Of a stretch of DNA of 64,000 nt, positions 3,499 to 62,738 are shown in pieces. Below the pieces are notes generated by a model. The model saw only the letters and a program-made list of their open reading frames with translations, searched no databases and had not been told where the DNA came from. Each line of letters starts with the position of its first letter. Position 1 is the first letter of the stretch. A program made the translations under genes and the position numbers. Location of the stretch: the NCBI GenBank assembly GCA_028286615.1, contig JAQBRG010000004.1, forward strand, positions 111,867 through 175,866. Direction: 5' to 3'. Source of the stretch: Parcubacteria group bacterium (GTDB lineage: Bacteria; Patescibacteriota; Minisyncoccia; Phycocordibacterales; Phycocordibacteraceae).

Positions 3499-3978
3499 CT
3501 ATTCTTCTAATGGATGAGGGAACCAGAAAGGATTAATAGATAATCTTTTGGCTTTATCCGTAGATAGAAGCTTCTGGCGTTCTCCATTTCGAGACTGCAT
3601 CTTAACCAGGCTCCCCTTTGCGTGTCTGATGCACCCAGATGTAAATCGCTGCTGTTGCTTGATGAAGTAGTAGGCAGCAGCTTGAGCATGAAGAGCGAGC
3701 TGCTCCTCTGTTTCGGCCAGCTCGATGTTGCAAACGTGAAAGTAGTTAGTCCAGACGCCGGCTTTTGGGAGAAGGTGAACAACGAAGTTCCCACCATCTT
3801 CGCCACCCGGGCAGTGCCGGAAGTCCCACGCTTCGTAGGGAAGTTCTTCATTTGCGAGCAGGAGCTCGTTCATGAAAACCTCTACGAACAGAAATGCGGT
3901 TGGCATAGCCCGACTCTGATCGATTGTGTCGGGTTCGATAAACCACTTGTCGTCTTGGCTATAAGTAATCGAGGTCAT
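3499..3978 (-). CDS. Hypothetical protein (SD-led orphan cassette)
   Basis: 159-aa ORF; AAAGGG upstream of ATG 3978; no recognised family. Confidence 0.6.
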   Translation of the reverse strand: MTSITYSQDDKWFIEPDTIDQSRAMPTAFLFVEVFMNELLLANEELPYEAWDFRHCPGGEDGGNFVVHLLPKAGVWTNYFHVCNIELAETEEQLALHAQAAAYYFIKQQQRFTSGCIRHAKGSLVKMQSRNGERQKLLSTDKAKRLSINPFWFPHPLEE

Positions 3979-4084
3979 GATTCGCCCTTTCAAGGTGCAT
4001 TGTTCCTATCAGTCGCCGAACGATTTCAGCGCCTGAATAAGAGGGAGAAGCATGCTTCTCCCAAGTTCTTGTCAGTCCGGACAC

Positions 4085-4450
4085 CTACTCCCTAGGTTGG
4101 GGATGCAAGCTCCATGCCGCAGCAACCAGTTCGTCAGGAGTCGGGCCATTCAGAAGACCAAAGATATCGAGCCCTGCTTCCTCTTTGTATTGACTAAAGA
4201 GCACCACGCCCATCCCTCCGTCAGCCCTAGCGTTCGAGCTCCCTTCCCCAATCATCTTACCGAGAGTGGCAATAGAGTTCTTGCAGCAGGAACAGACGCC
4301 GAAGAGAAGAATTTCGGGACGCTCTTCCAGCGGGCTCACCATTCTTGCGCCGACAGCTTCAAAGGCTGCACGCACATCAGCGGGAATAGTCTTACCAGAC
4401 TGGTGAGAGTAGTAGCCGACACGGGTCTTACGACCAACCATGAAGTTCAT
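4085..4450 (-). CDS. Hypothetical protein (SD-led orphan cassette)
   Basis: AAGGAGG before ATG 4450; TTGACT-N17-CATACT promoter upstream. Confidence 0.6.
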   Translation of the reverse strand: MNFMVGRKTRVGYYSHQSGKTIPADVRAAFEAVGARMVSPLEERPEILLFGVCSCCKNSIATLGKMIGEGSSNARADGGMGVVLFSQYKEEAGLDIFGLLNGPTPDELVAAAWSLHPQPRE

Positions 4451-4603
4451 TCGAGTGCCCCTCCTTAGGGCATTGGTGCAAGGCACCGTTTAAATGGAAG
4501 TTTCAATTTGACTCTGGTGAGAAGTATGTCATAAGTATCAAAATAGTCAAGTAATGTCGGACATGTGTTGACAAGTCTTCGACAACAAATTAGGCTGTAT
4601 CTA

Positions 4604-5362
4604 ATGGATGAAAAACTCCTAGAACCGCTGAATCTTAATGAAAGCGAGATAGCCGTATACCAGGCCGTGCTTCGAAGTGGAGCCATCGCGCCGGCAGACC
4701 TTGCTAAGGCTTCGGGAATTAAACGCACAACCGCCTACAGCGTTGCTCGTTCCTTGGTAGATAAAGGACTGCTTTCGGAAGATGCCACTCGCAGACCTCG
4801 AGTATTTACCCCCTCAACTCCTGAGCAGGTGTCCGGCCTTATTGAAACGGAAAGGCGACAACTTGTCTTAAAAGAGGAATCTCTTAATAAGGTTGCTGCA
4901 GAGCTTGCTAAGCTCTCAGCTAAAACGACCTACCCTGTTCCAACGGTACGTTTTATAGAGGAAGCGAAGATTGATTCGTTTCTCAGGCAACAGACACCAA
5001 TATGGGATAAGAATCTTAAGGAGACTGAGCCAACATGGTGGGGCTTCCAAGACCATACATTTGTAGAGCACTTTGCTAAATGGATTAGCTGGTATTGGAA
5101 CCAGTCTTCTAAAGATGTGAATCTCAAACTTCTATCAAACAGGGCACCAGCCGAGGTTGCTTTTGGAGATAAGTACGCAGATCAGCGACATATTAAGTTC
5201 TGGGGTGAAGCAAATAACTTTATGTCTACTACATGGATCATAGGAGACTACATAGTGATGATTAATACACGAGCCAAACCTTTCTATCTTGTAGAGATAC
5301 ACGACAAGCTTATGGCACACGATCAACGAGAAGTATTTAGGAATCTATGGGATTTGGTGTAG
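4604..5362 (+). CDS. TrmB-family transcriptional regulator
   Basis: LNLNESEIAVYQAVL..DLAKASGIKRTTAYSVARSLVDKGLL HTH; TTGACA-N17-TAGGCT 7 nt before ATG (leaderless). Confidence 0.85.
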   Translation: MDEKLLEPLNLNESEIAVYQAVLRSGAIAPADLAKASGIKRTTAYSVARSLVDKGLLSEDATRRPRVFTPSTPEQVSGLIETERRQLVLKEESLNKVAAELAKLSAKTTYPVPTVRFIEEAKIDSFLRQQTPIWDKNLKETEPTWWGFQDHTFVEHFAKWISWYWNQSSKDVNLKLLSNRAPAEVAFGDKYADQRHIKFWGEANNFMSTTWIIGDYIVMINTRAKPFYLVEIHDKLMAHDQREVFRNLWDLV

Positions 5363-5372
5363 GCTAGCGAAT

Positions 5373-5933
5373 ATGAAAATCGGCATCATGGGCGCGCAGG
5401 GAAGCTTCTCGGAAGAAGCAGCAAGGAAGTATGTAGAGAAAGAGTCGTTAGAGAATGTAGACATTGAATACCTCATATCAGCTGAACGCGTACTCTCAGC
5501 TCTTGAGGCAGGAGAGATAGACCTCGGAGTATTCCCAATAGAAAACAGCAACGGCGGCATTGTTATAGAAGCCGTGCACGCCATGGCAGCACACCGCTTC
5601 AAGGTTAAGAAGATGTTTGAGATTGACGTGCACCAGAACCTGCTCGCTATGAAGGGAGTAAATCCAGAACAGATAACACTTATAACCTCGCACGACCAAG
5701 CACTGAAGCAATGTCGTATGTATTTAAAACGTAAGTGGCCAGGCGTAGATATTCAGGAATACGCAGACACCGCCAAGGCAGCACAGGATCTTGCTTCCGG
5801 AGCACTTCCTCCAACAACTGCTGTTATTGCTTCACGCGCTGCAGCAGACTTATACAACCTAGAGATTCTCGAAGAGAGTATTCAGGATCTGAAATTTAAC
5901 TACACGAGTTTCGTTGTTGCAGAGAAGATCTAG
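5373..5933 (+). CDS. pheA: Prephenate dehydratase catalytic domain (no ACT domain)
   Basis: GAQGSFSEEAA, PIENSNGG, SHDQALKQC, IQDLKFNYTSF. Confidence 0.85.
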   Translation: MKIGIMGAQGSFSEEAARKYVEKESLENVDIEYLISAERVLSALEAGEIDLGVFPIENSNGGIVIEAVHAMAAHRFKVKKMFEIDVHQNLLAMKGVNPEQITLITSHDQALKQCRMYLKRKWPGVDIQEYADTAKAAQDLASGALPPTTAVIASRAAADLYNLEILEESIQDLKFNYTSFVVAEKI

Positions 5934-5940
5934 CAAAAAG

Positions 5941-5966
5941 AAAAACCCCGCATCTGCGGGGTTTTT
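5941..5966. terminator. Bidirectional intrinsic terminator
   Basis: aaaaaccccgc-atct-gcggggttttt. Confidence 0.8.
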
Positions 5967-5981
5967 CTTTAAGCAAACTGC

Positions 5982-6254
5982 TTATTTAACTGAATCCTTA
6001 AGGGCCTTTGCGGCGCGGAACTTAGGAGTACGAGTTGCAGCGATCTTGATAGTCTCGCCGGTACGTGGGTTGCGGCCAGTACGAGCTGGACGAGCCTTGG
6101 CGCTGAAGATGCCGAGACCTGCGATTGAAACTTCGTCACCAGACTTAAGGCCTGTTGTGATGCTCTCGATAACAGCTTCAACTGCGCGCTCTGCATCAGC
6201 CTTTGTGCTGCCGAGAACGTCCTGCACCTTTGCTGCAATATCTGCTTTATTCAT
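5982..6254 (-). CDS. hup: DNA-binding protein HU
   Basis: MNKADIA..GLGIFSAKARPARTGRNPRTGETIKIAA..PKFRAAKALKD. Confidence 0.95.
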   Translation of the reverse strand: MNKADIAAKVQDVLGSTKADAERAVEAVIESITTGLKSGDEVSIAGLGIFSAKARPARTGRNPRTGETIKIAATRTPKFRAAKALKDSVK

Positions 6255-6411
6255 AGTACTTGTTTTTGGGTTAATCCCTTCCGGGGTTCTTACGAGCCCC
6301 TCGGGAGGGCTATGCTCAAAAGTATAGGAAATGAGCCATATTACGCAAGAGGGCTTGAAAAAATCGGTGGATAAGGTGAAATTAGGAATTTCAGCAGATT
6401 ATACTGTTTAC

Positions 6412-6708
6412 ATGAGCATGGAACATGGTGGAACTTTAAATCATGGAGAGAATCTAAATAGAGAAAAGAGGCATCCAACCCGTGAAGAGTACGAAGCTAA
6501 GGTTGTGGCAGATCTCGAGCAACAATTTAAAACGATTAGAGAGAATCTAAACAACGGCAAGCGCGGTATAAGTAAGTATTTAACTGGATATGCTTATGAC
6601 AGGCTGCTAGAACTAGAGGAAAAGAAGCACATACCAGCTGACATAGCAGAAAGACTGCGCGACGAGGCGGATAAGTTCTTTGATGAGCTGGGAGAAAAGG
6701 CAGCTTAA
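6412..6708 (+). CDS. Hypothetical protein
   Basis: TATACT 6 nt before ATG 6412; charged 98-aa ORF. Confidence 0.6.
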   Translation: MSMEHGGTLNHGENLNREKRHPTREEYEAKVVADLEQQFKTIRENLNNGKRGISKYLTGYAYDRLLELEEKKHIPADIAERLRDEADKFFDELGEKAA

Positions 6709-6713
6709 AATAG

Positions 6714-6748
6714 TTGACTTACAAGTATACTTTAAAGTATACTTGTAA
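6714..6748 (+). promoter_or_regulatory. Toxin-antitoxin promoter with 30-bp perfect palindromic operator
   Basis: TTGACT (6714) -N18- TATACT (6738); ttacaagtatactttaaagtatacttgtaa at 6719-6748 is self-complementary. Confidence 0.75.
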
Positions 6749-6749
6749 C

Positions 6750-6995
6750 ATGACTCCTCAAATCATTGGCATTAAAGAATTACAGAACAAATTAAAGTAC
6801 GTAGCTGATGCAACGCTGCTTGGTGTTTCTTTTACTGTAGTGCGTGGTTCTAAGCCAGTTTTTCGCATCGAGCCAATTCTTCCTACTAAACGAACAGGTA
6901 CATTAGAGGACGCATTTAAGGCCTTGGCTTTTAAAGGAGAAAAGGATTTATCTCAGCGAATTGACGACATCGTATATGGCGGGAAACTTCATTGA
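6750..6995 (+). CDS. Phd/YefM-like antitoxin
   Basis: IIGIKELQNKL..FTVVRGSKPVFRIEP; directly upstream of a PIN gene. Confidence 0.75.
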   Translation: MTPQIIGIKELQNKLKYVADATLLGVSFTVVRGSKPVFRIEPILPTKRTGTLEDAFKALAFKGEKDLSQRIDDIVYGGKLH

Positions 6996-7371
6996 TACAA
7001 GCGTTCTCATTTCATTCTTCAATGAAAAAGACTCGCTGCATGAGCGAGCTCAGTTAATTTTAAGAGAGATCCAAAAACCCCTGCTTGTGCATGAATACGT
7101 AGTCTTAGAAACCGCTACTGTGCTTATGAATCGAGTTGGAAAATCCTCGGCAGATGAGTTTATGCGAATAACGCTGGGAAATGCAGACTTTGAACTCCAC
7201 TTGAGCTCAGAGGTAGGATTCCTTGCTTCAGCAGAAACTTTTGTTCAGAATCAAAACAAACTTTCTTTTGTAGACACGGCGTTGCTCTCTTTGTCAGGAA
7301 CTAGTCAAATTATTACCTTTGACGAAGAACTTAACCGTGCAATTAAGAAGCGTAAGGAAAAGAAAGATTAG
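6976..7371 (+). CDS. vapC: PIN-domain (VapC-like) toxin
   Basis: FIDTSVLI, VVLETATVL, LSFVDT, IITFDEEL acidic PIN residues. Confidence 0.85.
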   Translation: MAGNFIDTSVLISFFNEKDSLHERAQLILREIQKPLLVHEYVVLETATVLMNRVGKSSADEFMRITLGNADFELHLSSEVGFLASAETFVQNQNKLSFVDTALLSLSGTSQIITFDEELNRAIKKRKEKKD

Positions 7372-8897
7372 CGAGCAAACTCAACAACTCGGTTCTCACG
7401 TATAACGTTAACCTTAATCTCTCCAGGATAACGGAGTTCCTTTTGAATACGCTCAGATATTTCGCGTGCCAGTTTGTGCATCGCGAGGTCCGTAACCTTG
7501 CCCGGATTAACGAACACACGTATCTCGCGGCCTGCAGATATGGCATATACCTTCTCAACTCCAGGGAAGGTTGAAGCAATTCGCTCAAGATCTCCAAGGC
7601 GTTCAAGATATCGCTCAACAGTGTCGCGACGTGCGCCAGGACGTCCCGCAGATATGGCATCTGCAACCTGCACAATTATAGATTCAGGTGTTTCATACGG
7701 ATATTCCTCGTGATGCGATTGCATCGCTTGGATTATTTCTTTCTTAACACCGAACTTCTCAAGAATACGACGACCTATCTCAACGTGCGTACCCTGCACT
7801 TCGTGGTCTACGGCTTTTCCAATGTCATGAAGAAGAGCACCTGCGCGAGCAGTTTGGGCATTAGCTCCAAGTTCTTCTGCGAGCATGCCGGCGATATGTG
7901 CCATTTCAATAGAGTGCTGCAGTACGTTCTGTCCGTAGCTCGTACGGAACCAGAGGCGCCCAAGAAGCGCTATAAGGCGAGGATCAAGACCAACGATACC
8001 AACTTCAAATGCAGCTTCTTCGCCCTTCTGCTTAATTGTCTCGTTAATCTCAGCCTTTGCTTTTGCAACGGTCTCTTCAATCTTTGCGGGCTGAATACGG
8101 CCATCAGTTAGAAGGCTTTCAAGTGCGAGCTTAGCTGTATGGCGGCGAAGCGGATCAAACGAAGAAAGCGTTATTTTGTCGGGTGCCTCATCGATTATTA
8201 CATCTACTCCCGTAGCGCGTTCAAAAGCTTTGATGTTGCGGCCATCCTTTCCGATTATCTTTCCCTTCATCTCCTCAGAAGGAATAGGTACTGAAAGCGT
8301 CATAACTTCCGCATTAACTGCGCTACCCATGCGATGTATAACGGAGAGAAGAATAGATTTAGCTCGAGCTTCAAGCTGCTCGCGTCCGTGAGCCTCAAGC
8401 TTCTGAAGACGAGAAAGAAAAGACTCTTCCTGAGAAGCCTCAACTTCTTTCATAAGTTCCTTGCTGGCTTCAAGTTCAGAAAGGCGGCCAATGCGTACGA
8501 GCTCTTGGCGGCGTTCAGCAAGCGTCTTCTCAGCTTCGCGCTTTACATTGGCTGCTTCGTTCTCACGGTTACGTATCTCCTCAGCTTCACTTGAGAGGTG
8601 TTGCTCTCGTTCATCAAGGAATTCCTCACGCTTTGCGATACGTTCTGCAGCCTTTGAAAGTTTCTCCTCACGAGCACGAAGAGGTTCCATGCGCTCTTTC
8701 TCAAGCTTTATGGCACGTTCTTCCGCTTCTGCGAGCAAACGGCTTGCGCGCTCCTTGGCCTCGAGCATCTTTTGCTTAACTTCAAGCTCCAAAGAGCCTC
8801 GTTGGGACAAGGAAATAAGCCACCTGAGCACATAGCCAAGCGCGATGCCGGCGGTGCCCGAAAGCGCCAGAAGAGCGAGAATGAGTTTTATAGACAT
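7368..8897 (-). CDS. rny: Ribonuclease Y
   Basis: N-term TM, coiled coil, KH (KGKIIGKDGRNI), HD (LLHDIGKA), ADAISAGRPGAR. Confidence 0.96.
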   Translation of the reverse strand: MSIKLILALLALSGTAGIALGYVLRWLISLSQRGSLELEVKQKMLEAKERASRLLAEAEERAIKLEKERMEPLRAREEKLSKAAERIAKREEFLDEREQHLSSEAEEIRNRENEAANVKREAEKTLAERRQELVRIGRLSELEASKELMKEVEASQEESFLSRLQKLEAHGREQLEARAKSILLSVIHRMGSAVNAEVMTLSVPIPSEEMKGKIIGKDGRNIKAFERATGVDVIIDEAPDKITLSSFDPLRRHTAKLALESLLTDGRIQPAKIEETVAKAKAEINETIKQKGEEAAFEVGIVGLDPRLIALLGRLWFRTSYGQNVLQHSIEMAHIAGMLAEELGANAQTARAGALLHDIGKAVDHEVQGTHVEIGRRILEKFGVKKEIIQAMQSHHEEYPYETPESIIVQVADAISAGRPGARRDTVERYLERLGDLERIASTFPGVEKVYAISAGREIRVFVNPGKVTDLAMHKLAREISERIQKELRYPGEIKVNVIRENRVVEFAR

Positions 8898-9023: not shown

Positions 9024-9407
9024 ATGAGGAAGTACCTTATAGTAAGCATCTTCGTTTTGGTTGCCGCTTGTGATCAGCCACCTCCTACTCCGCAACAGTC
9101 CGCGAAGCACTCCGCTGCTCTACAGGAGTGGAAAGACAACTGCACGGAGGAGAAACTCAAGACTTGTTTGGGGGCATTCGTGGTCTGGAGCAACTCCAGG
9201 ATCACACATATCGTGACGGGCCCTTCTCGGAGGGTGGGAGCAGACCTGCACGATGAGTACGCGACTTCCAATGGCTATATGAAGGATATGGTCGATCAAG
9301 ACACCAGCTACGGCTATATCGAAAAGATCGTGCGACCTGGCGAAGCTGACTGGTACGATACCGCCGTTGCGTTCAGTCGTCAGTTTTTGTACAAACCTGG
9401 GATGTAA
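9024..9407 (+). CDS. Putative lipoprotein (SD-led orphan cassette)
   Basis: MRKYLIVSIFVLVAAC lipobox; AAGGAG 7 nt upstream; terminator 9428-9455. Confidence 0.7.
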   Translation: MRKYLIVSIFVLVAACDQPPPTPQQSAKHSAALQEWKDNCTEEKLKTCLGAFVVWSNSRITHIVTGPSRRVGADLHDEYATSNGYMKDMVDQDTSYGYIEKIVRPGEADWYDTAVAFSRQFLYKPGM

Positions 9408-9427
9408 CACCAGACAAGCTAACGCAA

Positions 9428-14430: not shown

Positions 14431-14458
14431 TTGACAAATACAGTATTTACCCTATAAT
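14431..14458 (+). promoter_or_regulatory. Consensus sigma70 promoter
   Basis: TTGACA-N16-TATAAT. Confidence 0.75.
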
Positions 14459-14507
14459 CTACGCAGCACCATTCACATCCACAAGACTCAATCGAAGGGG
14501 TACGAAT

Positions 14508-15581
14508 ATGAGTTCCTTGAGAGTTAATCGTCGTTTTTTGCTTGCCACTGCACTCGGTTCGACTGCAGTGGTTGTTGGCGGCGCGGCTCTCATGTTGAGA
14601 AACCACGCCCCGACTCTGGAACAACCGAGCGCCAGCTCTGAATACCCGATGGGGAAACTCGCTGGTCGGAACATCGGGAGCCTCTACGCCATCTACATCG
14701 GCTACGAGGGCAAGATCCCGTCCAGACTTAAGATCAACTGGCCGCAACGCATGGAATACATGTGGACCGCTAAGGTCACCAACTCGCATAACAACCGAGT
14801 GGTGCGCCAGACGCGAGACAAGTTGCTGCCTGAGTTTGCGCACGGGGAACCCAAGCGCATGTCGCTCGCCGCCTATCTCAAGGTGGCGGACGGCCAAGCC
14901 GATCTTCTGCATAAGAAGCTCGACTGGGACAAGGTCGGCAGCATGTACTTCACCCGTCAGGGGAAGGTCAACAAGCGCAAGCAACGCCTCCTCAAGAATG
15001 TCGCAGGGCAGGTTCGGGGGAACGAGTTGATCGCCTACGCTCTGACCGAGCTCATGCCCGGTCAGAATGACGGCGCCTTCAACCGCGACTTCCTCGACTT
15101 CCTGCTTCGGCAAGGAGGAAGGGAATTCGTTGAACGCATTCCTGCGCTCTACGACGACCGCACGTCGTTCGGCACCTACCAATTCACCTCGTTCGCTCTC
15201 TACGACGTTCCGGGTGAAAGGCGCGGCGCTTCGAATGTGAACCAGGCGTTGCCTCCGATGTATCGGATTCCCGGGAGCGTGATGCTTCTCCGGGAGAACG
15301 ATCACTTCAAGGCGGCCTATCTGTTCGCCGTGCACAACCTGGCGGTTGCTATCGCCAGACTGGACGACAAGCAGGTGCACACCTTCGAACGCAATCGTCG
15401 GCAGAAGGTGGATTCCATCGTGGAGTTCATCGCCGTCGCGCACCACGGCCCTGCCGCCGCTTACAATGCTTGCGGACGCTGGCTCGACAACAAAGCCAAG
15501 CAACCCTTCAGGAACTCCTGCTCGGGTCGCTATCGCACCTACGCAAACAAGACGGCGAATAACTACAAAGCTTTGGCGTAA
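14508..15581 (+). CDS. Putative exported lysozyme/lytic-transglycosylase-like protein with twin-arginine-like signal
   Basis: NRRFLLATALG + hydrophobic stretch; ALTELMP...SFGTYQFT...AVAHHGP; AAGGGG SD; terminator 15594-15634. Confidence 0.55.
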   Translation: MSSLRVNRRFLLATALGSTAVVVGGAALMLRNHAPTLEQPSASSEYPMGKLAGRNIGSLYAIYIGYEGKIPSRLKINWPQRMEYMWTAKVTNSHNNRVVRQTRDKLLPEFAHGEPKRMSLAAYLKVADGQADLLHKKLDWDKVGSMYFTRQGKVNKRKQRLLKNVAGQVRGNELIAYALTELMPGQNDGAFNRDFLDFLLRQGGREFVERIPALYDDRTSFGTYQFTSFALYDVPGERRGASNVNQALPPMYRIPGSVMLLRENDHFKAAYLFAVHNLAVAIARLDDKQVHTFERNRRQKVDSIVEFIAVAHHGPAAAYNACGRWLDNKAKQPFRNSCSGRYRTYANKTANNYKALA

Positions 15582-15944: not shown

Positions 15945-16093
15945 ATATATAAATTGTACTGCATGTTTCCGTGTCTATAAACAGGAGGCAGGAGAGGGTT
16001 ATTGCCTTGACGATATGAGTTTTCTTAGTATAGTTGCGACAGTACCAATAGATTTTTGACTTCAACCTACTGCTCCCTGAGGAGGGCTAACGT

Positions 16094-16882
16094 ATGAACC
16101 GTACGCAATGGACTACCAGGCACGTCGTTATCGGCGTGGTTGGCGCAGGCGCGCTTCTCGTCGCAGGAATCATGCTGTTCGGCCCGAAGGCTTCGGCCAG
16201 GGTCGACGTGGTCGAGGGGATCAAACCCGTCTCCACGCAGATGCTCGGCATCGCCGGCACCATCGACGACATGGCCAAGCTTCCGGTGGCGGAACGTGGC
16301 GCCTATCTCGAGCGCAACTGGCCGCATCTCTCGGAGGACATGGTTTTCTTCCTCCAGCGGCGCGGCAAGATCGCTCCGGGTGTCGAACCCACGAAGGTCG
16401 AGTTCTACTTCGGCTCGATGGACAAGGTGCTCGCCGAGAATGGCGACGGCGGCCGGCAACGTGGCTACTTCGCGAACCAACTGGTCGCCGTGGTGACAGT
16501 TCCGGGCCAAAAGGATCCCATCAAGGTCCTGGTCCAATGCACCAACGGCACCTTCGCGCTCGTCGAAGACCTGCGCAAGCTGCAGGCCGTCGGCGAGCAC
16601 ACTCCGCAAATGCGCTTCACTCTGGGCGCAGGCGAGGGGTTCACGCGTCACCTCGACTACCCGGCGGCGATCCAGCTCGCTCAAGATCTGGGCAAGCCGC
16701 TCTTCCGCACCGGGCGTATGACTCCGGAGAACCGGATCACTCCGGATCAAGCGCGGGCCCTCGAGAGCAGCCTGGACTGGGTGCAGGTTACCGTCGGCAA
16801 CGTCTTCCAAGGCGACAAGGTCGACCTGATCGCCGGCACCTACACTCCGGTCAACGGCCAGGTGATCCGCTTCCATCACTAA
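16094..16882 (+). CDS. Hypothetical membrane-anchored/exported protein, GC-rich (SD-led cassette)
   Basis: TTGACG..TATAGT promoter, AGGAGG SD, N-term hydrophobic helix, terminator about 16910-16945. Confidence 0.75.
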   Translation: MNRTQWTTRHVVIGVVGAGALLVAGIMLFGPKASARVDVVEGIKPVSTQMLGIAGTIDDMAKLPVAERGAYLERNWPHLSEDMVFFLQRRGKIAPGVEPTKVEFYFGSMDKVLAENGDGGRQRGYFANQLVAVVTVPGQKDPIKVLVQCTNGTFALVEDLRKLQAVGEHTPQMRFTLGAGEGFTRHLDYPAAIQLAQDLGKPLFRTGRMTPENRITPDQARALESSLDWVQVTVGNVFQGDKVDLIAGTYTPVNGQVIRFHH

Positions 16883-18840: not shown

Positions 18841-19230
18841 ATGCCCGTAGAGTTCATGCCCGCCCTGAACAGGTGGATACGCAGATTCTTGTTCGCCATT
18901 GTTGTTGGAGTCGCGGTATTCATCTATATGCTGCGGTTTATGCCTGATGATTTTTTCGCTCCTACCCAGGGCAACGAGATGGTTACGGTCGTCATGGTGC
19001 CTGTTTTTGCCGCAGCGTTCGCGTTTTTGGGATATCGAAGCCCTGTTGTAACTGGCGTGGGCTGCTTGCTCTTCGCGGGAATATTTTGGGTACTTGCCTG
19101 GACTACTCCTTCGCCAGCAACAAACGAGTTTCAGGTTGCGCATGTGATAACGCTGATGTGCATTGCGGGCCCCATCTGCGCAGGTGCGTGGTTGGTCAAG
19201 GCCGGCTGGAAACTCTCTCGTGGTCGGTAA
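18841..19230 (+). CDS. Small multi-pass membrane protein (SD-led cassette between pilB and pilC)
   Basis: About 4 hydrophobic helices; GAGGG SD; terminator 19252-19284. Confidence 0.65.
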   Translation: MPVEFMPALNRWIRRFLFAIVVGVAVFIYMLRFMPDDFFAPTQGNEMVTVVMVPVFAAAFAFLGYRSPVVTGVGCLLFAGIFWVLAWTTPSPATNEFQVAHVITLMCIAGPICAGAWLVKAGWKLSRGR

Positions 19231-20927: not shown

Positions 20928-21170
20928 ATGGTCGATTGGTGTAAGCCGATCCGGTTCGAAAATGGCGAGCCATGCGAGCTGCAAAGAACGAATCCTGACG
21001 GATGGAAACAGTGGGGTACCCGTGAAGACGGCGCCTATCCAACTCGAGAAATCCACCGGCTTGGCATAGACGAATCAACGCTCGGTGGAGCAATGTCTGC
21101 TCATTGGTTCGTGCATGAAGACGGGGAAATACACTGGCCAGGCTATAACGTCGTGAATATTCCTGAGTAG
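20928..21170 (+). CDS. Hypothetical protein (SD-led cassette)
   Basis: TAAGGAG 7 nt before ATG; terminator 21181-21213. Confidence 0.65.
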   Translation: MVDWCKPIRFENGEPCELQRTNPDGWKQWGTREDGAYPTREIHRLGIDESTLGGAMSAHWFVHEDGEIHWPGYNVVNIPE

Positions 21171-36216: not shown

Positions 36217-36819
36217 GTGTTCTTTTCTCTCAGCTCTAGCAATAGTGGCCTGCCCCTACTGGTCCACTGCGAATGGGACGCTCATAATACATCCTGCGAT
36301 CTCTTCTTTTGCTGCTCGCAAGAGCAACTCCGGGAACTGCTCGCTTCGGGCAGTCTGCATGAAGGCATTGTCGAACTCCAGACTGCCTTGAACGAGCTGC
36401 CGCCGACTTCTGAAGAACCTGCAATTCATTTGACCGGCGATGTTGCTGCCTCAACGGGCGCGTCAATCGTCGCTCTCGTAAATAACGGCGTGGAGATCCA
36501 TACACTGACCAGCAATTCAGAACTGAGTGGTTTCTGGCAACCCTCGCCCGATCGTCCTGCTGGCTCAGGCATATTGATTTGGGTCGACATGGAGACGAAG
36601 TATCACGTCGCCATCGCGCACTCCAAGGAGCAAGCCTGCTCAGTTGTTCGTGGGTTAGCGGACTGGATGGACCATGCTCGAATTCAACAGCTTTTGAACA
36701 AGATCAGTTTGTGGAATGCTCCGGATACGTCTGAAGATCCAGCGCTTCTGATTCAAGGTAAAGTTGCCGAGCTCATGCACTGGGGCTCAATGTTCGGTAA
36801 AATAGCGCAGGTGCTTTGA
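36217..36819 (+). CDS. Hypothetical protein with internal duplication (SD-led cassette)
   Basis: AGGAGGT before GTG; two similar halves; terminator about 36836-36870. Confidence 0.65.
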   Translation: MFFSLSSSNSGLPLLVHCEWDAHNTSCDLFFCCSQEQLRELLASGSLHEGIVELQTALNELPPTSEEPAIHLTGDVAASTGASIVALVNNGVEIHTLTSNSELSGFWQPSPDRPAGSGILIWVDMETKYHVAIAHSKEQACSVVRGLADWMDHARIQQLLNKISLWNAPDTSEDPALLIQGKVAELMHWGSMFGKIAQVL

Positions 36820-36935: not shown

Positions 36936-37268
36936 TTAAAAGGGATTGTCTGGAGCATTAATGCGTACTCCGATTTCGCGAAACCGCATCTTCATGCGTA
37001 CCCTGGTATGGGTAAATCCGTTTTCGATAACAAGATGATTCATGCGCGATGCCGCCGCTTCCTTCAGAGCTTTTGCGATTTCTCGAGCTTCTTTTTGGGG
37101 AGCCACTTTCTCGATAGTTACCAGCAGTTGATAGGCGGCGACAGCCTGGTCAGCCGACATGGACGTAATACTTCCAAACACCTTGTGAAGCTGACTCACC
37201 AGATTATCCGGGCTCAGGTCACGAAGCTCTTCGAAGGTGGCGGTAACAGCTGCAACTTCATTAGTCAT
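36936..37268 (-). CDS. Hypothetical protein (SD-led cassette)
   Basis: AAGGTG before ATG; 110 aa. Confidence 0.6.
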   Translation of the reverse strand: MTNEVAAVTATFEELRDLSPDNLVSQLHKVFGSITSMSADQAVAAYQLLVTIEKVAPQKEAREIAKALKEAAASRMNHLVIENGFTHTRVRMKMRFREIGVRINAPDNPF

Positions 37269-37403
37269 TGTTGTTCACCTTGTTTGGTTTTGGCCTAGAC
37301 AGACCCTAGCATGTGTTGCAAAAAGACTCCAGTATCGTCCCAGGAACACTAGCAAAAGAGCCTCCGAACGAGGCTCTTTTGCTTACTTTTCTTAGTCAGA
37401 TAT

Positions 37404-46023: not shown

Positions 46024-46284
46024 TCATTGGGGTTTCTTCAAATCTCCCATCTTCTCAAGAAGCTCCCTTGATTGCTTAGAGGTATTTCTGAAGCCTAGGG
46101 AGGAAAGATCGTGAGTGCCTGTTGCTCCCCAAGACTGACCCATATTGTCGGTGGCGTAAGTAATGCCGCCGACAGAAGTAAAGCTGGGCGTTCTGCTCGC
46201 TTTTTGATCGCTTGAGAAAGTTATGTTTGGCATAGGCTTAAAGCCTAACTTACGTAACTGTTTACTTAGCCTGCTCGTAGCCAT
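46024..46284 (-). CDS. Hypothetical protein, paralog of 46772-47110 (SD-led cassette)
   Basis: AGGAG SD; LGFKP..GGITYATDNMGQSW..DLSSLGF. Confidence 0.65.
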   Translation of the reverse strand: MATSRLSKQLRKLGFKPMPNITFSSDQKASRTPSFTSVGGITYATDNMGQSWGATGTHDLSSLGFRNTSKQSRELLEKMGDLKKPQ

Positions 46285-47110: not shown

Positions 47111-47270
47111 TGGACATCTCCTCTGTCTGGCAGGACTCTAACACTTTGGCCGCTTTTTGTCTGTATTTTCGTCTCGAGAGACTTGACAAAGTGACTCTGT
47201 TGCTGTATATTAGACGCAGCTCATAAGCGCAGGATGTTCCTGCCATGCAAGGCTCAGGAGGGCCTAGAAC

Positions 47271-49907: not shown

Positions 49908-50147
49908 TCAATTGCTGCTCTTTGGGGGCATGTTGATTCGTAACAGGCACACGATGATAGTGATGAGCATGAAGATCAACGAAAGCAGAATGGCCCCTCT
50001 CCACCAGATAGAGGGGTAGCTTACATTTCCCCAAGCAGAGCCTAGCGCTGTCATCCCCCACACCGCGACCCCAAATGGGTGGCCAAAGAGCCACCCAAAA
50101 ACCAGGATGATGGTTGGCGGTCTCATCGTGCTATGCATAAGAGCCAT
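49908..50147 (-). CDS. Small membrane protein between fusA and tuf (start uncertain)
   Basis: AGAGGAGAAGG before ATG 50147; hydrophobic helices; frame open further upstream. Confidence 0.5.
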   Translation of the reverse strand: MALMHSTMRPPTIILVFGWLFGHPFGVAVWGMTALGSAWGNVSYPSIWWRGAILLSLIFMLITIIVCLLRINMPPKSSN

Positions 50148-52550: not shown

Positions 52551-52682
52551 CTAGAGGCGAGTGGCGGAATCGACGAAGCCGTTGTCGGTTTCGCGCCTGA
52601 TGCCGCTGGAACCACCGTCGCCGATGGCTTCGCCTTCGGGCAAAATCCAGCTGGACGGATCACGCCTGATGTCCCGGTTCAT
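52551..52682 (-). CDS. Putative 43-aa small protein (not in the ORF track)
   Basis: MNRDIRRDPSSWILPEGEAIGDGGSSGIRRETDNGFVDSATRL*; GAGAGG SD; TGcTATAGT -10. Confidence 0.5.
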   Translation of the reverse strand: MNRDIRRDPSSWILPEGEAIGDGGSSGIRRETDNGFVDSATRL

Positions 52683-55592: not shown

Positions 55593-55823
55593 ATGCCCGT
55601 TCTCATCGCAATCTCTTTGATTTTGTATATCGTCTTCGTGCTCTTTGTCGCCTTAAAGTCTGGATCGGTCACAATCGACGGTCGGGAAATCAAGGACCCA
55701 TTCCTTCGGGGTCTTATTGCGCTAGCCATCTGGCCGTTAATTGGCCTTGTTCTCTGGCTGATTGGTTTGGTTGGTGGCTTTTTGCTCTTACCGTTCGCTG
55801 CTTTATTCGGCCTTGTCCATTAG
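55593..55823 (+). CDS. Small membrane protein (SD-led cassette)
   Basis: TTGACA promoter, AAGGAGG SD, two hydrophobic segments. Confidence 0.7.
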   Translation: MPVLIAISLILYIVFVLFVALKSGSVTIDGREIKDPFLRGLIALAIWPLIGLVLWLIGLVGGFLLLPFAALFGLVH

Positions 55824-57721: not shown

Positions 57722-57842
57722 AACCGGTCTCCCTTTCTCATGAATGGACTGGCAAAACCCTAACATAACGGCCTAAAGTTTGACACTTACCGCCATTTCG
57801 TATAGATTTTACCTATCCCGCCCAGCGGGCTTTTAACTACTC

Positions 57843-58190
57843 ATGTCCCGTTCCCTCAAGAAAGGCCCATACGTCGACTTCAAGCTCCTGAAGAAAGTTC
57901 AGGACAAAAAGCCTGCATCTGCAGGGGTTATTAAGACGTGGGCACGTAACAGCCAGATCGCTCCTGAGTTCGTTGGATTCACATTCGGTGTACACAACGG
58001 CAAGCAGCACCTGGAAGTTCTTGTGGCTGAGGAGATGGTAGGGCACCGCCTGGGAGAATTCTCTCCAACTAAGAAGTTCGTTCGTCACGGAGGAAAGATG
58101 CAGAAGCAGCTTGAGCAGAAGAAGCAGCAGGCAGAAATAACCGCAGCTAAGGCTGCAAAGGCAGCTCCAGCAGCGCCTAAGAAGAAATAA
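57843..58190 (+). CDS. rpsS: 30S ribosomal protein S19
   Basis: [27 protein letters not shown]. Confidence 0.97.
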
Positions 58191-58191
58191 T

Positions 58192-58608
58192 ATGGCTTCT
58201 ACTGGAACACACCGACCGCCAGCTAAGGCTCGCAAAGAAGAAGCGAAGAAGCAGATTCGTGCTTCTATCGACACCTACAACCAGGCCCCTCGCAAGGTTC
58301 GTCTTGTGACCGACATGATCAAGGGCAAGCGCGTTGCTGACGCTATCGCTGCTCTCTCATTCCTTCCTAAGCGCGCATCTCTTCCAATCAAGAAGCTCAT
58401 CGAGTCAGCTGCAGCTAACGCAAAGCAGAAGGGAGAAGACGTAGACATGCTCCGCGTTGAGGATATTCGTGTAGACTCAGCAGGTATGCTCGTTCGATTC
58501 ATGCCTCGCGCTATGGGTCGTGCAGCTCCTATCCGCAAGCGTCGCAGCCAGGTGGTTATCACCCTCGGTATCGATCCTAAAGCCGTAGCTAAAGCTGCAA
58601 AGGCATAA
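58192..58608 (+). CDS. rplV: 50S ribosomal protein L22
   Basis: PRKVRLV, SAAANA, PRAMGRA. Confidence 0.96.
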   Translation: MASTGTHRPPAKARKEEAKKQIRASIDTYNQAPRKVRLVTDMIKGKRVADAIAALSFLPKRASLPIKKLIESAAANAKQKGEDVDMLRVEDIRVDSAGMLVRFMPRAMGRAAPIRKRRSQVVITLGIDPKAVAKAAKA

Positions 58609-58614
58609 TTTTAT

Positions 58615-59295
58615 ATGACACACACCGTACATCCTTACGCACACCGCCTTGGCATCATCCGTGATTGGAAGAGCCGTTGGTTTGCTATAGACAAGAAGTC
58701 ATACCGCGAGAATCTTGCGGTTGACGCTGCTATCCGTGGCTTCCTCAAGAAGCGTCTTAAGGGTATGCACGTTTCAGATACTGAAATCGAGCGTTCTGCT
58801 AACGAAGTACGCGTTATTCTCCACACTGCTCGCCCAGGTCTCGTAATCGGTCGCTCAGGTGAGAACGCAACCAAGCTCCGCACCGAGCTCAACAAGGTTG
58901 TTCGCAAGATCGCTCCAGCACACGGACGTTCAGTGAAGCTCGACATCATGGAAATCCGCCAGCCTGAGACTTCAGCTGCGGTTGTTGGCCAGATGGTTGC
59001 CGAAGGACTTGAGAAGCGTATGCCGTTCCGCCGCGTTCTTAAGGGAACAGTTGAGAAGGTCATGGGTGTTCGCGAGGTTATCGGAATCCGCATCGTGGTT
59101 TCCGGTCGTCTTGGTGGCGCTGACATGAGCCGCACCGAGCAGATCAAGCGCGGACGTATTCCTCTTCAGACTTTCCGTGCAAATATCGATTACGCGCAAG
59201 TCGAAGCGCTTCTTCCGTACGGAATCATCGGTATCAAGGTTTGGATCTACCTAGGTGAGACCTTCGAGTCCAGCACGCCAGCTACCACAAAATAA
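58615..59295 (+). CDS. rpsC: 30S ribosomal protein S3
   Basis: HPYAHRLGI, PGLVIG, SGRLGGA, PLQTFRANIDY. Confidence 0.97.
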   Translation: MTHTVHPYAHRLGIIRDWKSRWFAIDKKSYRENLAVDAAIRGFLKKRLKGMHVSDTEIERSANEVRVILHTARPGLVIGRSGENATKLRTELNKVVRKIAPAHGRSVKLDIMEIRQPETSAAVVGQMVAEGLEKRMPFRRVLKGTVEKVMGVREVIGIRIVVSGRLGGADMSRTEQIKRGRIPLQTFRANIDYAQVEALLPYGIIGIKVWIYLGETFESSTPATTK

Positions 59296-59297
59296 TT

Positions 59298-59717
59298 ATG
59301 TTGTTTCCTAAAAAAGTTAAACACCGCAAGTGGCAGACAGGACGTAAGTCCCCTGAGAAACTCGCACGTCCTGAGACTCGTGGTATCACGGTAGCCTTCG
59401 GTTCGTACGGTCTTAAGGCCACAAGTCCTTCACGCGTTACTTCTAACCAGATTGAGGCCGCTCGTAAGGTTCTTACACGCGTAACCGGAAAAGGTGGTAA
59501 GCTCTGGATTCGCATCTTCCCAGACCGTCCAATCACCAACAAGCCTGCTGAGGTAGGCATGGGTAAGGGTAAGGGAGATCCTAAGCACTTCGTGTTCGAG
59601 GTACGTCCAGGACGTGTGCTCTTCGAGCTTGATGGTGTGGACGATGCTAAGGCACGGGACGCACTTCGCCGCGCTGGTGGAAAGCTTCCGCTTAAGACTA
59701 CGATAGTCACCCGCTAG
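59298..59717 (+). CDS. rplP: 50S ribosomal protein L16
   Basis: QIEAAR, WIRIFPD, MGKGKG. Confidence 0.97.
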   Translation: MLFPKKVKHRKWQTGRKSPEKLARPETRGITVAFGSYGLKATSPSRVTSNQIEAARKVLTRVTGKGGKLWIRIFPDRPITNKPAEVGMGKGKGDPKHFVFEVRPGRVLFELDGVDDAKARDALRRAGGKLPLKTTIVTR

Positions 59718-59727
59718 ATATTTACGT

Positions 59728-59922
59728 ATGGCAAAGAAAATTTCATTCAAAGAGAAGAGTGCAGACGAGCTAGCAAAGCTTCTTATGGAGAAGCGTGAAG
59801 AGCTTCGTACCCTTCGTTTCTCATTCGCAGGTTCTCGTGGCAAAGACAGCAATGCTGCAGGAAAGACTCGCAAAGACGTCGCTCGTATCCTTACGGAGAT
59901 GACCGCAAAGAAGATCGCATAA
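59728..59922 (+). CDS. rpmC: 50S ribosomal protein L29
   Basis: LRTLRF..RKDVARILT; synteny. Confidence 0.93.
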   Translation: MAKKISFKEKSADELAKLLMEKREELRTLRFSFAGSRGKDSNAAGKTRKDVARILTEMTAKKIA

Positions 59923-59930
59923 ACACTACT

Positions 59931-60179
59931 ATGGAAAACACTAACCCAAAGCCTCAGACCTTCCGCGGAACCGTTGTTAAAACGGCCATGAAGGACACGG
60001 CTACCGTTTCCGTATCTCGCTACGTGAAGCACCCTAAGTACCAGAAGTTCCAGATCCTCACGAAGAAGTTCCTCGTTGACGACAAGGGTAACACTGCTAA
60101 GGAAGGGGACGAGGTTACTATCGTAGCCTGCGCACCTATCTCTAAGCGCAAGTCATTCAAGATCGCCAAGGCCGATTAA
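59931..60179 (+). CDS. rpsQ: 30S ribosomal protein S17
   Basis: GTVV..MKDT, HPKY, PISKRK. Confidence 0.96.
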   Translation: MENTNPKPQTFRGTVVKTAMKDTATVSVSRYVKHPKYQKFQILTKKFLVDDKGNTAKEGDEVTIVACAPISKRKSFKIAKAD

Positions 60180-60190
60180 CTACCTTTACC

Positions 60191-60568
60191 ATGATCCAGA
60201 CCCAATCAATCGTAACCATTGCAGACAACTCAGGCGGTAAAATCGCTCGTGTCTTCAAGGTGCTCGGTGGCTCAAAGCGTCGCTACGCACAGATCGGGGA
60301 TGTGGTTGTGGCTTCTATCCAGACTGCAGAACCTCGCAAGTCAGTTAAGAAGAAGGACATCGTTAAGTGCGTGGTTGTTCGTCAGCGCAAGGCATACCGC
60401 CGTGCTAACGGCATCTACGTGCGCTTTGATGACAACGCCGTTGTTATCATCGAGAAGCAGGGAAAGGAGATGGGTCCTAAGGGAAACCGTGTCTTTGGTC
60501 CTGTACCACGCGACCTCGTCGACCGCGGATGGCAGAACATCGCATCCCTCGCACCTGAGGTTGTATAA
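60191..60568 (+). CDS. rplN: 50S ribosomal protein L14
   Basis: MIQ..ADNSG, FDDNAVV, RVFGPV, SLAPEV. Confidence 0.97.
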   Translation: MIQTQSIVTIADNSGGKIARVFKVLGGSKRRYAQIGDVVVASIQTAEPRKSVKKKDIVKCVVVRQRKAYRRANGIYVRFDDNAVVIIEKQGKEMGPKGNRVFGPVPRDLVDRGWQNIASLAPEVV

Positions 60569-60578
60569 CATTTGATAT

Positions 60579-60923
60579 ATGTCTAAAGCATCTAAAGGTC
60601 TCCAGACCGCAAAGTTTAAAGTAAAGAAAGGTGACGAAGTTATCGTTATCTCAGGCAAGGACAAGGGCACAACCGGAAAGGTTGCTCGCGTTCTTCCTCA
60701 GGAAGCCAAGGTTGTTATCGACGGCGTTGCTCTCGTTAAGCGTCACCTTCGCAAGACCGGTCGCGGCCAGTCTGGGCGCATCATTGAGAAGCCTCGTGCA
60801 ATCGCTATCTCAAACGTTATGGTCTATGACGCAAAAGAGAAGAAGGGTACTCGCGTTAAGCGCGTTCTCGCAGACGGCAAGCGTTCACGCGTAACCGTAA
60901 AGAGCGGCACCACCCTCTCGTAA
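60579..60923 (+). CDS. rplX: 50S ribosomal protein L24
   Basis: KKGDEVIVISGKDKG KOW motif. Confidence 0.96.
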   Translation: MSKASKGLQTAKFKVKKGDEVIVISGKDKGTTGKVARVLPQEAKVVIDGVALVKRHLRKTGRGQSGRIIEKPRAIAISNVMVYDAKEKKGTRVKRVLADGKRSRVTVKSGTTLS

Positions 60924-60933
60924 TCCTATATTT

Positions 60934-61476
60934 ATGTTGATTTCAAAAGAAAAACAGGCAAGCGCATTTGATGCACTCAAAGGACAGTTCGGTTACGCGA
61001 ACGTCTTCGCGTCTCCCAAGCTCGTAAAGGTTACGGTGTCTTCAGGCGTAGGTAAGGCAGACAAGGCTCGCAAGGCACTTGTTGAGAGCCGTCTCGCTCG
61101 TATCACGGGCCAGAAGGCATCAGCTCGTCCTGCTAAGCAGTCCATCGCACAGTTCAAGATGCGTGAAGGCGATATCGTTGGCTTCCAGGTTACGCTCCGC
61201 GGCAACCGTATGAATGACTTCGTAGACAAGCTCATCCACATCGCACTTCCTCGTACTCGTGACTTCCGTGGTCTTACGGCGACAGCAATCGACGAGATGG
61301 GTAACCTCACGATCGGTATCAAGGACCATACAATCTTCCCCGAGACTACAGACGAAGATCTTAAGGACGTGTTTGGTATCGCCATCACCCTCGTTACAAC
61401 CGCCAAGAACAAGGTTGAAGCTGAAGCATTCTTCCGCCACCTAGGCATTCCGTTTAAGAACGAAACTGAGGCATAA
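60934..61476 (+). CDS. rplE: 50S ribosomal protein L5
   Basis: ITGQK, VTLRG, LPRTRDFRG, IFPE. Confidence 0.97.
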   Translation: MLISKEKQASAFDALKGQFGYANVFASPKLVKVTVSSGVGKADKARKALVESRLARITGQKASARPAKQSIAQFKMREGDIVGFQVTLRGNRMNDFVDKLIHIALPRTRDFRGLTATAIDEMGNLTIGIKDHTIFPETTDEDLKDVFGIAITLVTTAKNKVEAEAFFRHLGIPFKNETEA

Positions 61477-61599
61477 GACAAACGGCCCGAAAGGGCCGTT
61501 TTGCTTTAGCGGTTTTATAGCCATAGCTATTTGACAAGCTAGCTAATATTCAGTATTGTGATTTCAGACCCAATAACCAGCCCTTGAAAGGGGATACCC

Positions 61600-62136
61600 A
61601 TGACAGTTTCGTGTGATGCTGAATATGTATTCATCTCTCCTGACGCGATCCGTCTATCAGAACGTATGCGCAGTTTGGTCGAGGATGTTCAAAGCGTCCT
61701 CTGCGTTGAAGTGGAAGGGAAAAACTTAACGCTCAGGTTCTCTTTTGAGCGTGCGAACGAAGTAGGGATGAGCTCTGTTTATAGCATGACAAACGAGATA
61801 TTCGAGTTGGCAAAGATTCTTAAATACGCTGAGGAACAGCATCGTATTCCGCTTGACGACCTTCTCGAGTTCCTTCCGAGCGATAACATGACAGTCTCGG
61901 ACATGCGGAGTTCACTCGGAAGCCTGAACGAGAGAGTCACCAATGAGGTGGCTGGAATTATTGCCCATCGTTTCAACGAGAGCTACGTAACAGTTGAGGG
62001 ATGGAAAGATCGCGTGGAAGGCAGATTCTTGTTCGCTACAATAACCTTGGCCGGGCACGGCGAGGTGTTCGGTACCTTCGACAATGATTTTCCTTTTGAG
62101 GAAGCAGCCGTCTTGTTTGACGAAATAGAAAAGTAA
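61600..62136 (+). CDS. Acidic hypothetical protein (SD-led cassette)
   Basis: TTGACA-N17-TATTGT, AAGGGG SD, terminator about 62152-62178. Confidence 0.7.
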   Translation: MTVSCDAEYVFISPDAIRLSERMRSLVEDVQSVLCVEVEGKNLTLRFSFERANEVGMSSVYSMTNEIFELAKILKYAEEQHRIPLDDLLEFLPSDNMTVSDMRSSLGSLNERVTNEVAGIIAHRFNESYVTVEGWKDRVEGRFLFATITLAGHGEVFGTFDNDFPFEEAAVLFDEIEK

Positions 62137-62270
62137 GAAGCATCTTATTCAATGCCCTGCGGGAAAACCGCAGGGCATGGTTATTTTCGTCCCTATGGCC
62201 GGCGTTTGTTTGACAGATGCATCCTAAAAGTGTTTGATGCGCATAGATACAGCAAAGAAGGGAACTACCT

Positions 62271-62738
62271 ATGCAAGCGACTCTCGCGCGGCCGAGCCTC
62301 AAACTCGTGTCTTGGTGCCATCTGAAGCCGGTGACGATCAAGATCGAACAGCATGTTCCGGTCGATCCACGAATCTTCCCTGCGGCCCAGGAGGGGTTTG
62401 ATGACTTCTCCATGGCGTCTCAGGTCTCATATTTCGGCTATAAAATGGGGCTCGTCGACATCTCGGGCCTTACGCACGAGGAGGTGAAGGAGCGGGTTAA
62501 AATCGATTTTGATTACGGGCATTCGACATCGGCAGTCGAATTTCTTAGGTGTCTCGAGTTCATTCAGTCGGAGCACTGCACGCCTTTCCCGTTCGAGCGC
62601 ATCGCCGCGTATCCGGTAGGGAGCGAGCCTGTGGCCGCAGTACGCATCGAAAATGGCTTCAAACGTGTCCCGTGTCCCGATCCAGAGACCCTCTGGGAGC
62701 CCGGCACACTTGGCCTGTTCAACGTCCCAGACCTTTAG
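62271..62738 (+). CDS. Hypothetical protein (SD-led cassette)
   Basis: TTGACA upstream, AAGGGA SD, terminator about 62752-62772. Confidence 0.65.

Follow-up and report, generated by a model that had tools for sequence, protein, structure and literature searches.

Shine-Dalgarno-led Gene Cassettes in a Paceibacteria-type Genome without an Anti-Shine-Dalgarno: A Candidate Host-directed Gene Set

Introduction

What reads a Shine-Dalgarno (SD) sequence in a cell whose own 16S rRNA tail does not match it? The question is raised by a stretch of 64,000 nucleotides, the window (contig C6:111867-175866), from the genome of a Parcubacteria group bacterium (G000; 757 kb in 8 contigs, 94.7% complete) that, by our own reading of its gene content and 16S rRNA, appears to belong among the Paceibacteria-type bacteria of the candidate phyla radiation (CPR). 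Scattered between conserved genes without SDs are 29 mostly single-gene units, here called cassettes, which an earlier note had taken for genes written for the ribosomes of another cell. That reading, in which the SD-led cassettes would be host-directed genes delivered as nucleic acid and translated by host ribosomes, is the one modestly favored here. The SD class bears on how CPR bacteria exploit their hosts, on the cargo of type IV secretion systems (T4SSs), and on which hosts the Paceibacteria have.

Two Gene Formats in One Genome

All 29 cassette starts listed in the earlier note are start codons preceded by the purine tracts it quoted. At a threshold of -5 kcal/mol for pairing with the canonical anti-SD, 27 of the 29 are SD-led (those at 3978 and 37268 pair more weakly), and their pairing with the cell's own 16S tail is much weaker, at -1.4 to -6.0. 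None of 38 conserved window genes reaches the threshold; 14 of these have instead a leaderless-type TAnnnT 6-9 nt before the ATG, among them all seven genes (rarA, pheA, pilC, tpiA, recJ, rnhA, and lexA) for which a -10 box had been claimed at that place. A contig from a public DNA run, possibly the source sample, spans four cassettes and their neighbors at even depth; two RNA runs of the same study gave no useful cover.

For the genome as a whole, comparison was made with the whole assemblies of G017 (a single contig) and G032, with 197 kb from G059, and with syntenic pieces from five others. Genes were called with a custom codon model, so that the gene sets are approximate, and were classed by homology; the first plausible ATG, chosen blind to the SD, was taken as the start, and the SD motif was sought at -16 to -5. 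These SD-blind starts underlie the headline counts, several automatic SD calls on conserved genes having been due to wrong starts. In G000, an SD precedes 90 of 312 unique (lineage-specific) genes versus 10 of 339 conserved ones (p=9e-22), with 7/154 and 6/43 in intermediate homology classes; core genes elsewhere in the genome thus do not use SDs, a finding that the earlier note had named as one that would count against it had it turned out otherwise. The same contrast between unique and conserved genes is found in G017 (82/486 versus 12/334), G032 (29/111 versus 16/310), and G059 (14/46 versus 8/152). Shuffled upstream regions give at most 39 where 90 are observed in unique genes, the count for conserved genes lies below the shuffle mean, and 182 of 1707 uncalled open reading frames (ORFs) have an SD. 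The GGAG ends 6-9 nt before the start in 90 of 109 cases. A peak at -8 in G017 is due to one repeated gene family, removal of repeats leaving 61/400; about 20 copies of one ORF family with identical upstream sequence, probably an insertion element, are present in that genome. A variant SD matched to the cell's own tail was considered as a native signal and set aside, its enrichment not being comparable to that of the canonical SD.

A model of native starts, trained on 157 homology-confirmed leadered starts (area under the curve 0.89), scores 87 cassette starts at -0.62, close to the -0.72 of internal ATGs; 78 accessory genes without an SD score 0.67, close to core genes. By this partly circular measure, the cassette starts are without the native initiation signature.

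The 16S Tail and the Possible Reader of the Signal

The 16S rRNA 3' tail, whose inspection for CCUCC the earlier note had proposed, ends ...GGAACAUAUCC / ...GUGGAACAUAUCCAAUU and does not contain it; nor does any of the 19 tails of the order, this one included, that were readable in 31 genomes searched. AAGGAGG pairs with the cell's own tail at -3.4 versus -10.7 for a canonical tail. The bases in place of the anti-SD (G000 C1) can form a small hairpin with the following spacer (UCCAAUUGGA), and are conserved in the genus.

Loss of the anti-SD is known for a Parcubacteria subgroup (Tsurumaki 2022, PMC9297842), which, so far as its accessible text goes, is like G000 in having a 16S tail without CCUCC and core genes without SDs. 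Organisms lacking the anti-SD are generally reported to lack SDs as well (Amin 2018, PMC6107228, accessible text); G000 differs in that a large accessory class, the 90 unique genes above, keeps them. An SD class retained in a cell without the anti-SD is not described in the accessible portions of either paper. A literature search covering few subscription papers likewise gave no description of the pattern, although supplementary tables of Tsurumaki or Amin may touch on it.

A rather unlikely explanation keeps the cassettes as host-directed effectors but has the CPR cell translate them and export the proteins, with a native factor (an RNA-binding protein, a trans-acting RNA, or an altered site on the 30S subunit) reading the SD-like tract so as to mark or time the class. 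The weak pairing with the cell's own tail argues against it, as does the SD spacing, which is that of canonical ribosomes; CsrA and bS21 were sought in the genome and not found. A further explanation, very improbable in either of its two forms, supposes that the cassettes serve a life stage in which the ribosome differs, by a second 16S or by subunits borrowed from the host, or, alternatively, that they are selfish units of the kind considered below. The assembly does contain two 16S halves, 92.5% alike over a 478-base overlap, but both are Paceibacteria-like and lie at contig ends (C1:22332-23577 and C7:14036-14705, the latter with its tail unassembled), and single-contig relatives show one locus. 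The halves are probably a mixed assembly of a single locus.

Promoters, Terminators, and a Resident Module

The earlier note credited the cassettes with terminators of their own, and an intrinsic terminator indeed accompanies 28 of the 29; its TTGACN-like promoters for most of them fared less well, as a strict TTG(A/C)C -35 box is present at 9 of 29 only. In genome-wide comparisons whose SD groups use starts favoring SDs, terminators follow 74 of 123 SD genes versus 43 of 226 other accessory genes, a YAG stands 4-6 nt after the -10 box (the start site being predicted) in 53 of 123 SD genes versus 35 of 309 core genes and 17% of shuffled sequences, and a -35 box is found in 47/83 versus 8/42 scored promoters. 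YRR start elements are reported as a general trait of Terrabacteria (PMC12641261, accessible text); in G000, by contrast, the YRR/YAG element marks one gene class. Such class-specific features, together with the module described next, show native co-regulation, which favors translation in the CPR cell.

The module is a promoter of about 60 bp ending at the YAG. It was defined without reference to the SD, its pattern being derived from G000 and G032, and has seven copies in G000, one of them degenerate and within the window. It occurs in 26 of 201 genus genomes (reversed control 0), in none of 250 other genomes of the order, and at 8 metagenome loci, and was not found in viral contigs; the order-wide tallies for the module, for CtrA, and probably for GcrA include an unpublished genome (G309) on which alone no claim depends. 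The first ORF behind the module is SD-led at 26 of 29 loci (23/26 without G000 and G032), with an SD before the next ATG at two of the three exceptions, and at all 7 metagenome loci that have an ORF. These ORFs are mostly unrelated, with only 5 related pairs, and one of the families has 5 homologs among 5.8 billion proteins, the sole named one from a Patescibacterium. As the module is genus-restricted and heads SD-led ORFs, it would be a CPR-born promoter paired with SDs that the cell itself cannot pair with.

Identification of the module as an EcfG promoter (spacer 19-20 nt versus 16-17), a sigma54 promoter (9 nt between GG and GC), or an attC site (no invariant GTTRRRY) was rejected. Tandem module-headed arrays with truncated copies lie at G000 C5:54068-58577 and C8:126420-127600 and at G032 C4:168765-170789, the C5 array and that of G032 occupying the same site with different cargo. 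Like integron cassette arrays, the G000 cassettes are exchangeable units of one gene each, some of them arrayed in tandem after a repeat; unlike in integrons, the repeat is promoter-like and stands at the head of each unit, most units are without it, and no integrase is nearby. A motif scan gave one Xer-like core gene, outside the window. The earlier note had seen no integrase or att sites around the window cassettes; a simple test found no flanking direct repeats of >8 nt in 19 gaps. The second form of the very improbable explanation introduced above, in which the single-gene units are selfish, travel by way of SD-using bacteria or phages, and only rest in CPR chromosomes, draws on the tandem arrays, whose truncated copies suggest recombination at the module. 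Set against it are the missing viral copies of the module and the PHROG matches, which extend to 2 of 28 window cassettes, both regulators; the window has no prophage structure.

Turnover and Selection

About 30% of the lineage-specific genes are SD-led units of one gene, each with a promoter and terminator of its own, and are exchanged at fixed intergenic sites: the same sites in relatives carry different SD-led genes, a sign of fast turnover. Shared cassettes are under purifying selection and keep the SD. In 10 hand-picked pairs, nonsynonymous divergence (dN) is below synonymous divergence (dS), as in 0.15/1.73 and 0.31/1.61, and SD-like tracts precede both partners (in one pair, before the second ATG); retention despite divergence, a check suggested in the earlier note, thus extends over identities of 25-87%. 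A small Cys-rich SD-led family occupies one site, the rplB-rpsS gap, in three relatives (G059_0090, G060_0021, and G046).

Fast turnover also suits a quite unlikely alternative, continuous horizontal import by natural competence, in which the SDs are decaying leftovers from donors and most units are weakly expressed passengers. A ComEC gene lies in the window, fourfold-site GC is raised in the SD genes of G000 (0.515 versus 0.373), the KGG gene looks recently imported, and horizontal transfer into Patescibacteria is documented (PMC12455944, accessible text). Yet other imported-looking accessory genes have no SDs: Pfam matches (E 1e-5) are found for 59 of 125 non-SD unique genes versus 20 of 109 SD genes in hand-edited lists (an SD list of 108 from which 7 were taken out and to which 8 were added; for the non-SD genes, the first 150 of 170 less 25 doubtful ones). 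The SD persists at dS above 1.6, the CtrA-like gene is ameliorated (fourfold GC 0.41) with frame intact and a weak SD still present, nearly all genes behind the resident module are SD genes, and of the 5 homologs of the module-led family the sole named one is patescibacterial. For KGG, the near-identity to donor DNA including flanks that would have counted against the earlier note was not seen, as the closest donor-like copy has no flanking DNA in common with it.

Regulators and Lipoproteins among the Cassettes

Judged by sequence likeness, the SD class holds the alphaproteobacterial regulators GcrA, CtrA, XRE, and KGG, three of them closest to Caulobacteraceae. The GcrA gene (C8:232340-232846) is 56-66% identical to its top matches, of which the named ones are mostly Caulobacteraceae, and scores 213 bits against an NCBIfam cut-off of 280. 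It keeps the CCCH zinc-finger ligands, R33/I37/G38, and most sigma contacts (residue list: PMC5887438). The cell's own sigmaA is Firmicutes-like, without the nonconserved region (NCR), and has E, E, and K at Caulobacter positions G133, A136, and A143 (by a numbering offset of one deduced from sequence). In the accessible text of the same source, G133E, A136E, and A143R impair GcrA binding, a hint that the sigmaA surface of G000 may be incompatible with GcrA. Matches to GcrA are found in 13 of 401 genomes of the order, 9 of them over the cut-off, and their identity of 25-29% to the G000 protein implies separate acquisitions. In other families, 5 of 5 scored GcrA homologs are SD-led, which favors the host-directed reading.

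The CtrA derivative (C5:26423-27112) is about 50% identical to CtrAs that are mutually 73% alike. It keeps 81 of 103 invariant residues, has the changes D8N, D51S, S79G, and K101R with loss of the phosphoacceptor and an altered recognition helix, and is, to judge from these residues, a CtrA-derived pseudo-receiver. No CtrA-type protein was found in 400 other genomes of the order (best 38%) or in phages, and neither CtrA boxes nor GANTC sites are enriched. The XRE regulator has its best plasmid matches in Asticcacaulis (57%) and Phenylobacterium (51%), is present in 22 of 151 genus genomes, and keeps its SD in G060; KGG is 76% identical to a Caulobacteraceae genome copy, and its G059 homolog is SD-led (dN 0.31, dS 1.61). 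An SD-led extracytoplasmic function (ECF) sigma factor is closest to alphaproteobacterial sigmas encoded beside NepR.

For several cassette proteins, searches of this genome gave no partner or no processing enzyme. By a heuristic call of lipoboxes, 9 of 11 lipobox genes are SD-led versus 450/2955, and neither Lgt nor LspA turned up in G000 or in five near-complete relatives. The twin-arginine translocation (Tat) argument is weaker, with one clear case: the gene at 14508 belongs to a family of 452 homolog clusters with no Pfam model, an RR motif is present in 41 of the 150 top homologs (taxa unknown), and TatC was sought and not found. Translation in the CPR cell followed by export would explain GcrA, CtrA, and XRE equally well, T4SSs being commonly exporters of proteins (PMC12102498, accessible text), but lipoproteins and membrane proteins with signal peptides fit synthesis in the target cell better.

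The Case for Host-directed Genes

Several observations weigh against translation in a host. The start-model result is partly circular because a G-rich SD itself lowers the score. Region 4.2 of the cell's own sigma is intact, so that the -35 boxes do not imply a host RNA polymerase. The SD-led GcrA homologs of other families belong to genomes whose 16S tails lie outside the tail survey, and a native-format CcrM-like methyltransferase of 297 aa means that the DNA mark of GcrA may exist in G000. A DUF817 SD gene (about 50% to Pasteurella/Serratia/Bacillus) is not alphaproteobacterial, and ParB-like SD genes point to other lineages. Among the genomes compared, homologs were found for only 3 of 29 window cassettes, with 3 of 4 scored homologs SD-led, so that the case for conservation is built on a small number of families; the exception is the KGG homolog in G456, which lacks an SD. 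Fourfold-site GC is higher in the SD genes of G000 and G032, not of G017 or G059. In nucleotide sequence, KGG is 82% identical over 147 bases to its Caulobacteraceae counterpart but 73% to that of G059, which fits recent import. Finally, no bacterial T4SS is known to export mRNA.

The host-directed reading of the earlier note is thus partly upheld: most of the tests that might have refuted it favor it, and the GcrA/sigma mismatch and the lipoboxes hint at another cell, while native translation with protein secretion stands as its rival. If the cassettes are translated in a host, delivery as mRNA would be somewhat favored over DNA because the units are dispersed and without att sites. The cell's own sigmaA would transcribe the cassettes into short terminated mRNAs, often with a predicted 5'-AG start, which would pass to an attached alphaproteobacterial host, most likely one of the Caulobacteraceae, perhaps via the conserved T4SS. 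Host ribosomes would translate them, the products would retune the host's cell cycle, stress response, and envelope, and genes for the cell's own use would stay in the SD-less format. The full scheme, a two-format genome of an anti-SD-less Paceibacterium from which 5'-AG mRNAs are injected and in whose alphaproteobacterial host GcrA and a phosphorylation-independent CtrA reprogram the cell cycle, is tentative and, as a whole, doubtful.

VirB4-like and VirD4-like genes (PF19044 and PF10412, over cut-off) show a T4SS to be present; as a route of cassette delivery it is conjecture. The T4SS is essential in a saccharibacterium, and those of Patescibacteria are usually relaxase-less (PMC12102498). 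That of G000 resembles them in its VirB4/PrgI cluster beside dnaA and a separate VirD4-like gene.

Were the reading correct, a signal of 4-8 bases would separate a cell's own genes from host-directed ones, and host identity and an effector catalogue might be read from sequence alone via the SD class. Caulobacteraceae would be named as a host candidate for cultivation, and nucleic acids would be delivered between bacteria, with mRNA as a bacterium-to-bacterium effector. Even under native translation and export, the SD class would be a candidate effector catalogue, and an SD kept without an anti-SD would call for a new reader.

Relation to Known Systems

In Agrobacterium, transfer DNA (T-DNA) is one bordered block that a relaxase moves into a eukaryote in a T4SS-dependent manner. 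T-DNA genes and the cassettes are alike as bacterial genes formatted for another cell's expression machinery, with a T4SS present; in their expression signal, the cassettes have an SD that matches the canonical tail and not their own. Unlike T-DNA, they are dispersed single genes with a bacterium as the presumed target, and the simple repeat test described above showed no borders. Caulobacter phages also carry GcrA, as in the phiCbk homolog (PMC9437464, accessible text), and such host-takeover genes share with the cassettes the carriage of host cell-cycle regulators by a parasite. Unlike a phage, the carrier of the cassettes is a cell with its own ribosomes, and PHROG matches are few. New here are the genus-restricted module, the GcrA-sigma mismatch together with the CtrA derivative, the SD-led lipobox genes without Lgt or LspA, the conservation of the SD, and the non-native cassette starts.

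Features of the Window and Minor Observations

The cassettes and the backbone between them are collected in Table 1. That the cassettes are orphans, as the earlier note held, is true of most; TetR, XRE, and KGG have Pfam families, and the gene at 14508 has the homologs given above. The ESM Atlas gave nothing for 16094, and an Rfam scan of the window gave no match.

Table 1. Cassettes and other features of the window
Position	Strand	Feature	Remarks
3499..3978	-	cassette ORF 159 aa, weak SD (-4.4), terminator	no Pfam or PHROG match
4085..4450	-	SD-led orphan 121 aa (TAAGGAGG), terminator	TTGAC..-10..YAG promoter at 4550-4514
9024..9407	+	SD-led predicted lipoprotein (VAA-C) 127 aa	Lgt, LspA not found in genome
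10159..10533	-	SD-led orphan 124 aa	
13083..13715	+	SD-led TetR-family regulator 210 aa	PF00440
13895..14347	+	SD-led (weak, -5.3) membrane orphan 150 aa	
14508..15581	+	SD-led 357-aa protein, twin-arginine-like N-terminus	promoter 14431-14466
16094..16882	+	SD-led orphan 262 aa, N-terminal hydrophobic segment	promoter 16007-16042
18841..19230	+	SD-led membrane orphan 129 aa	
20609..20803	+	SD-led 64-aa ORF	no terminator; co-transcription with 20928 possible
20928..21170	+	SD-led orphan 80 aa	
26010..26384	+	SD-led orphan 124 aa	
28421..29059	+	SD-led orphan 212 aa	
33315..33971	-	SD-led orphan 218 aa (AGGAGGTG)	
36217..36819	+	SD-led ORF 200 aa	G480 homolog (31%) SD-led too, behind promoter module
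36936..37268	-	cassette ORF 110 aa (AAGGTGA)	promoter module at head
37295..37346	-	degenerate copy of ~60-bp promoter module (GGAACC..TGCAA..TGnTAnGTT CTGTCYAG)	six further copies in genome
39378..39854	-	SD-led alphaproteobacterial-type XRE regulator 158 aa	PF01381
41902..42243	+	SD-led orphan 113 aa, signal-peptide-like N-terminus	
46024..46284	-	SD-led orphan 86 aa	
46499..46708	+	SD-led KGG stress protein 69 aa	PF10685
46772..47110	-	SD-led orphan 112 aa	
47271..47510	+	SD-led membrane orphan 79 aa	promoter 47183-47219
49908..50147	-	SD-led orphan 79 aa	
52127..52474	+	SD-led orphan 115 aa (TAAGGAGGTG), between rpsJ and rplC	junction spanned by one contig
52551..52682	-	SD-led 43-codon ORF	least certain gene
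55593..55823	+	SD-led membrane orphan 76 aa	
57200..57721	-	SD-led orphan 173 aa	
61600..62136	+	SD-led orphan 178 aa	promoter 61531-61567
62271..62738	+	SD-led (weak, -5.3) orphan 155 aa	
2249..63544	.	SD-less backbone (38 genes checked; leaderless extended -10 or A/U-rich leaders)	syntenic in relatives; gaps there hold other SD-led cassettes

Elsewhere in G000, an SD-led reverse transcriptase fused to a DnaG-type zinc finger (C5:42047-43264; L036:3534-4751, minus strand) is followed by about 700 bp with few ORFs; it might conceivably act like a retron or in cassette capture. An SD-led two-gene unit at C2:27757-29916 encodes a dihydroorotate dehydrogenase-like protein and a dihydroorotase, metabolic cargo resembling phage auxiliary metabolic genes. 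By our own labeling, G017_0182 and G066_0040 are SD-led short paralogs of the cell's SD-less RelA/SpoT-like gene, and HisS-like (G032_0406) and LemA-like (G066_0046) paralogs are SD-led as well. The CcrM-like methyltransferase gene adjoins a DUF6997 gene (C3:54470-56166), probably as a restriction-modification pair. A SMODS nucleotidyltransferase and a SLATT effector (C8:73845-75768; L049:17233-19157), a defense pair like those of cyclic-oligonucleotide-based antiphage signaling systems (CBASS), are in the native SD-less format.

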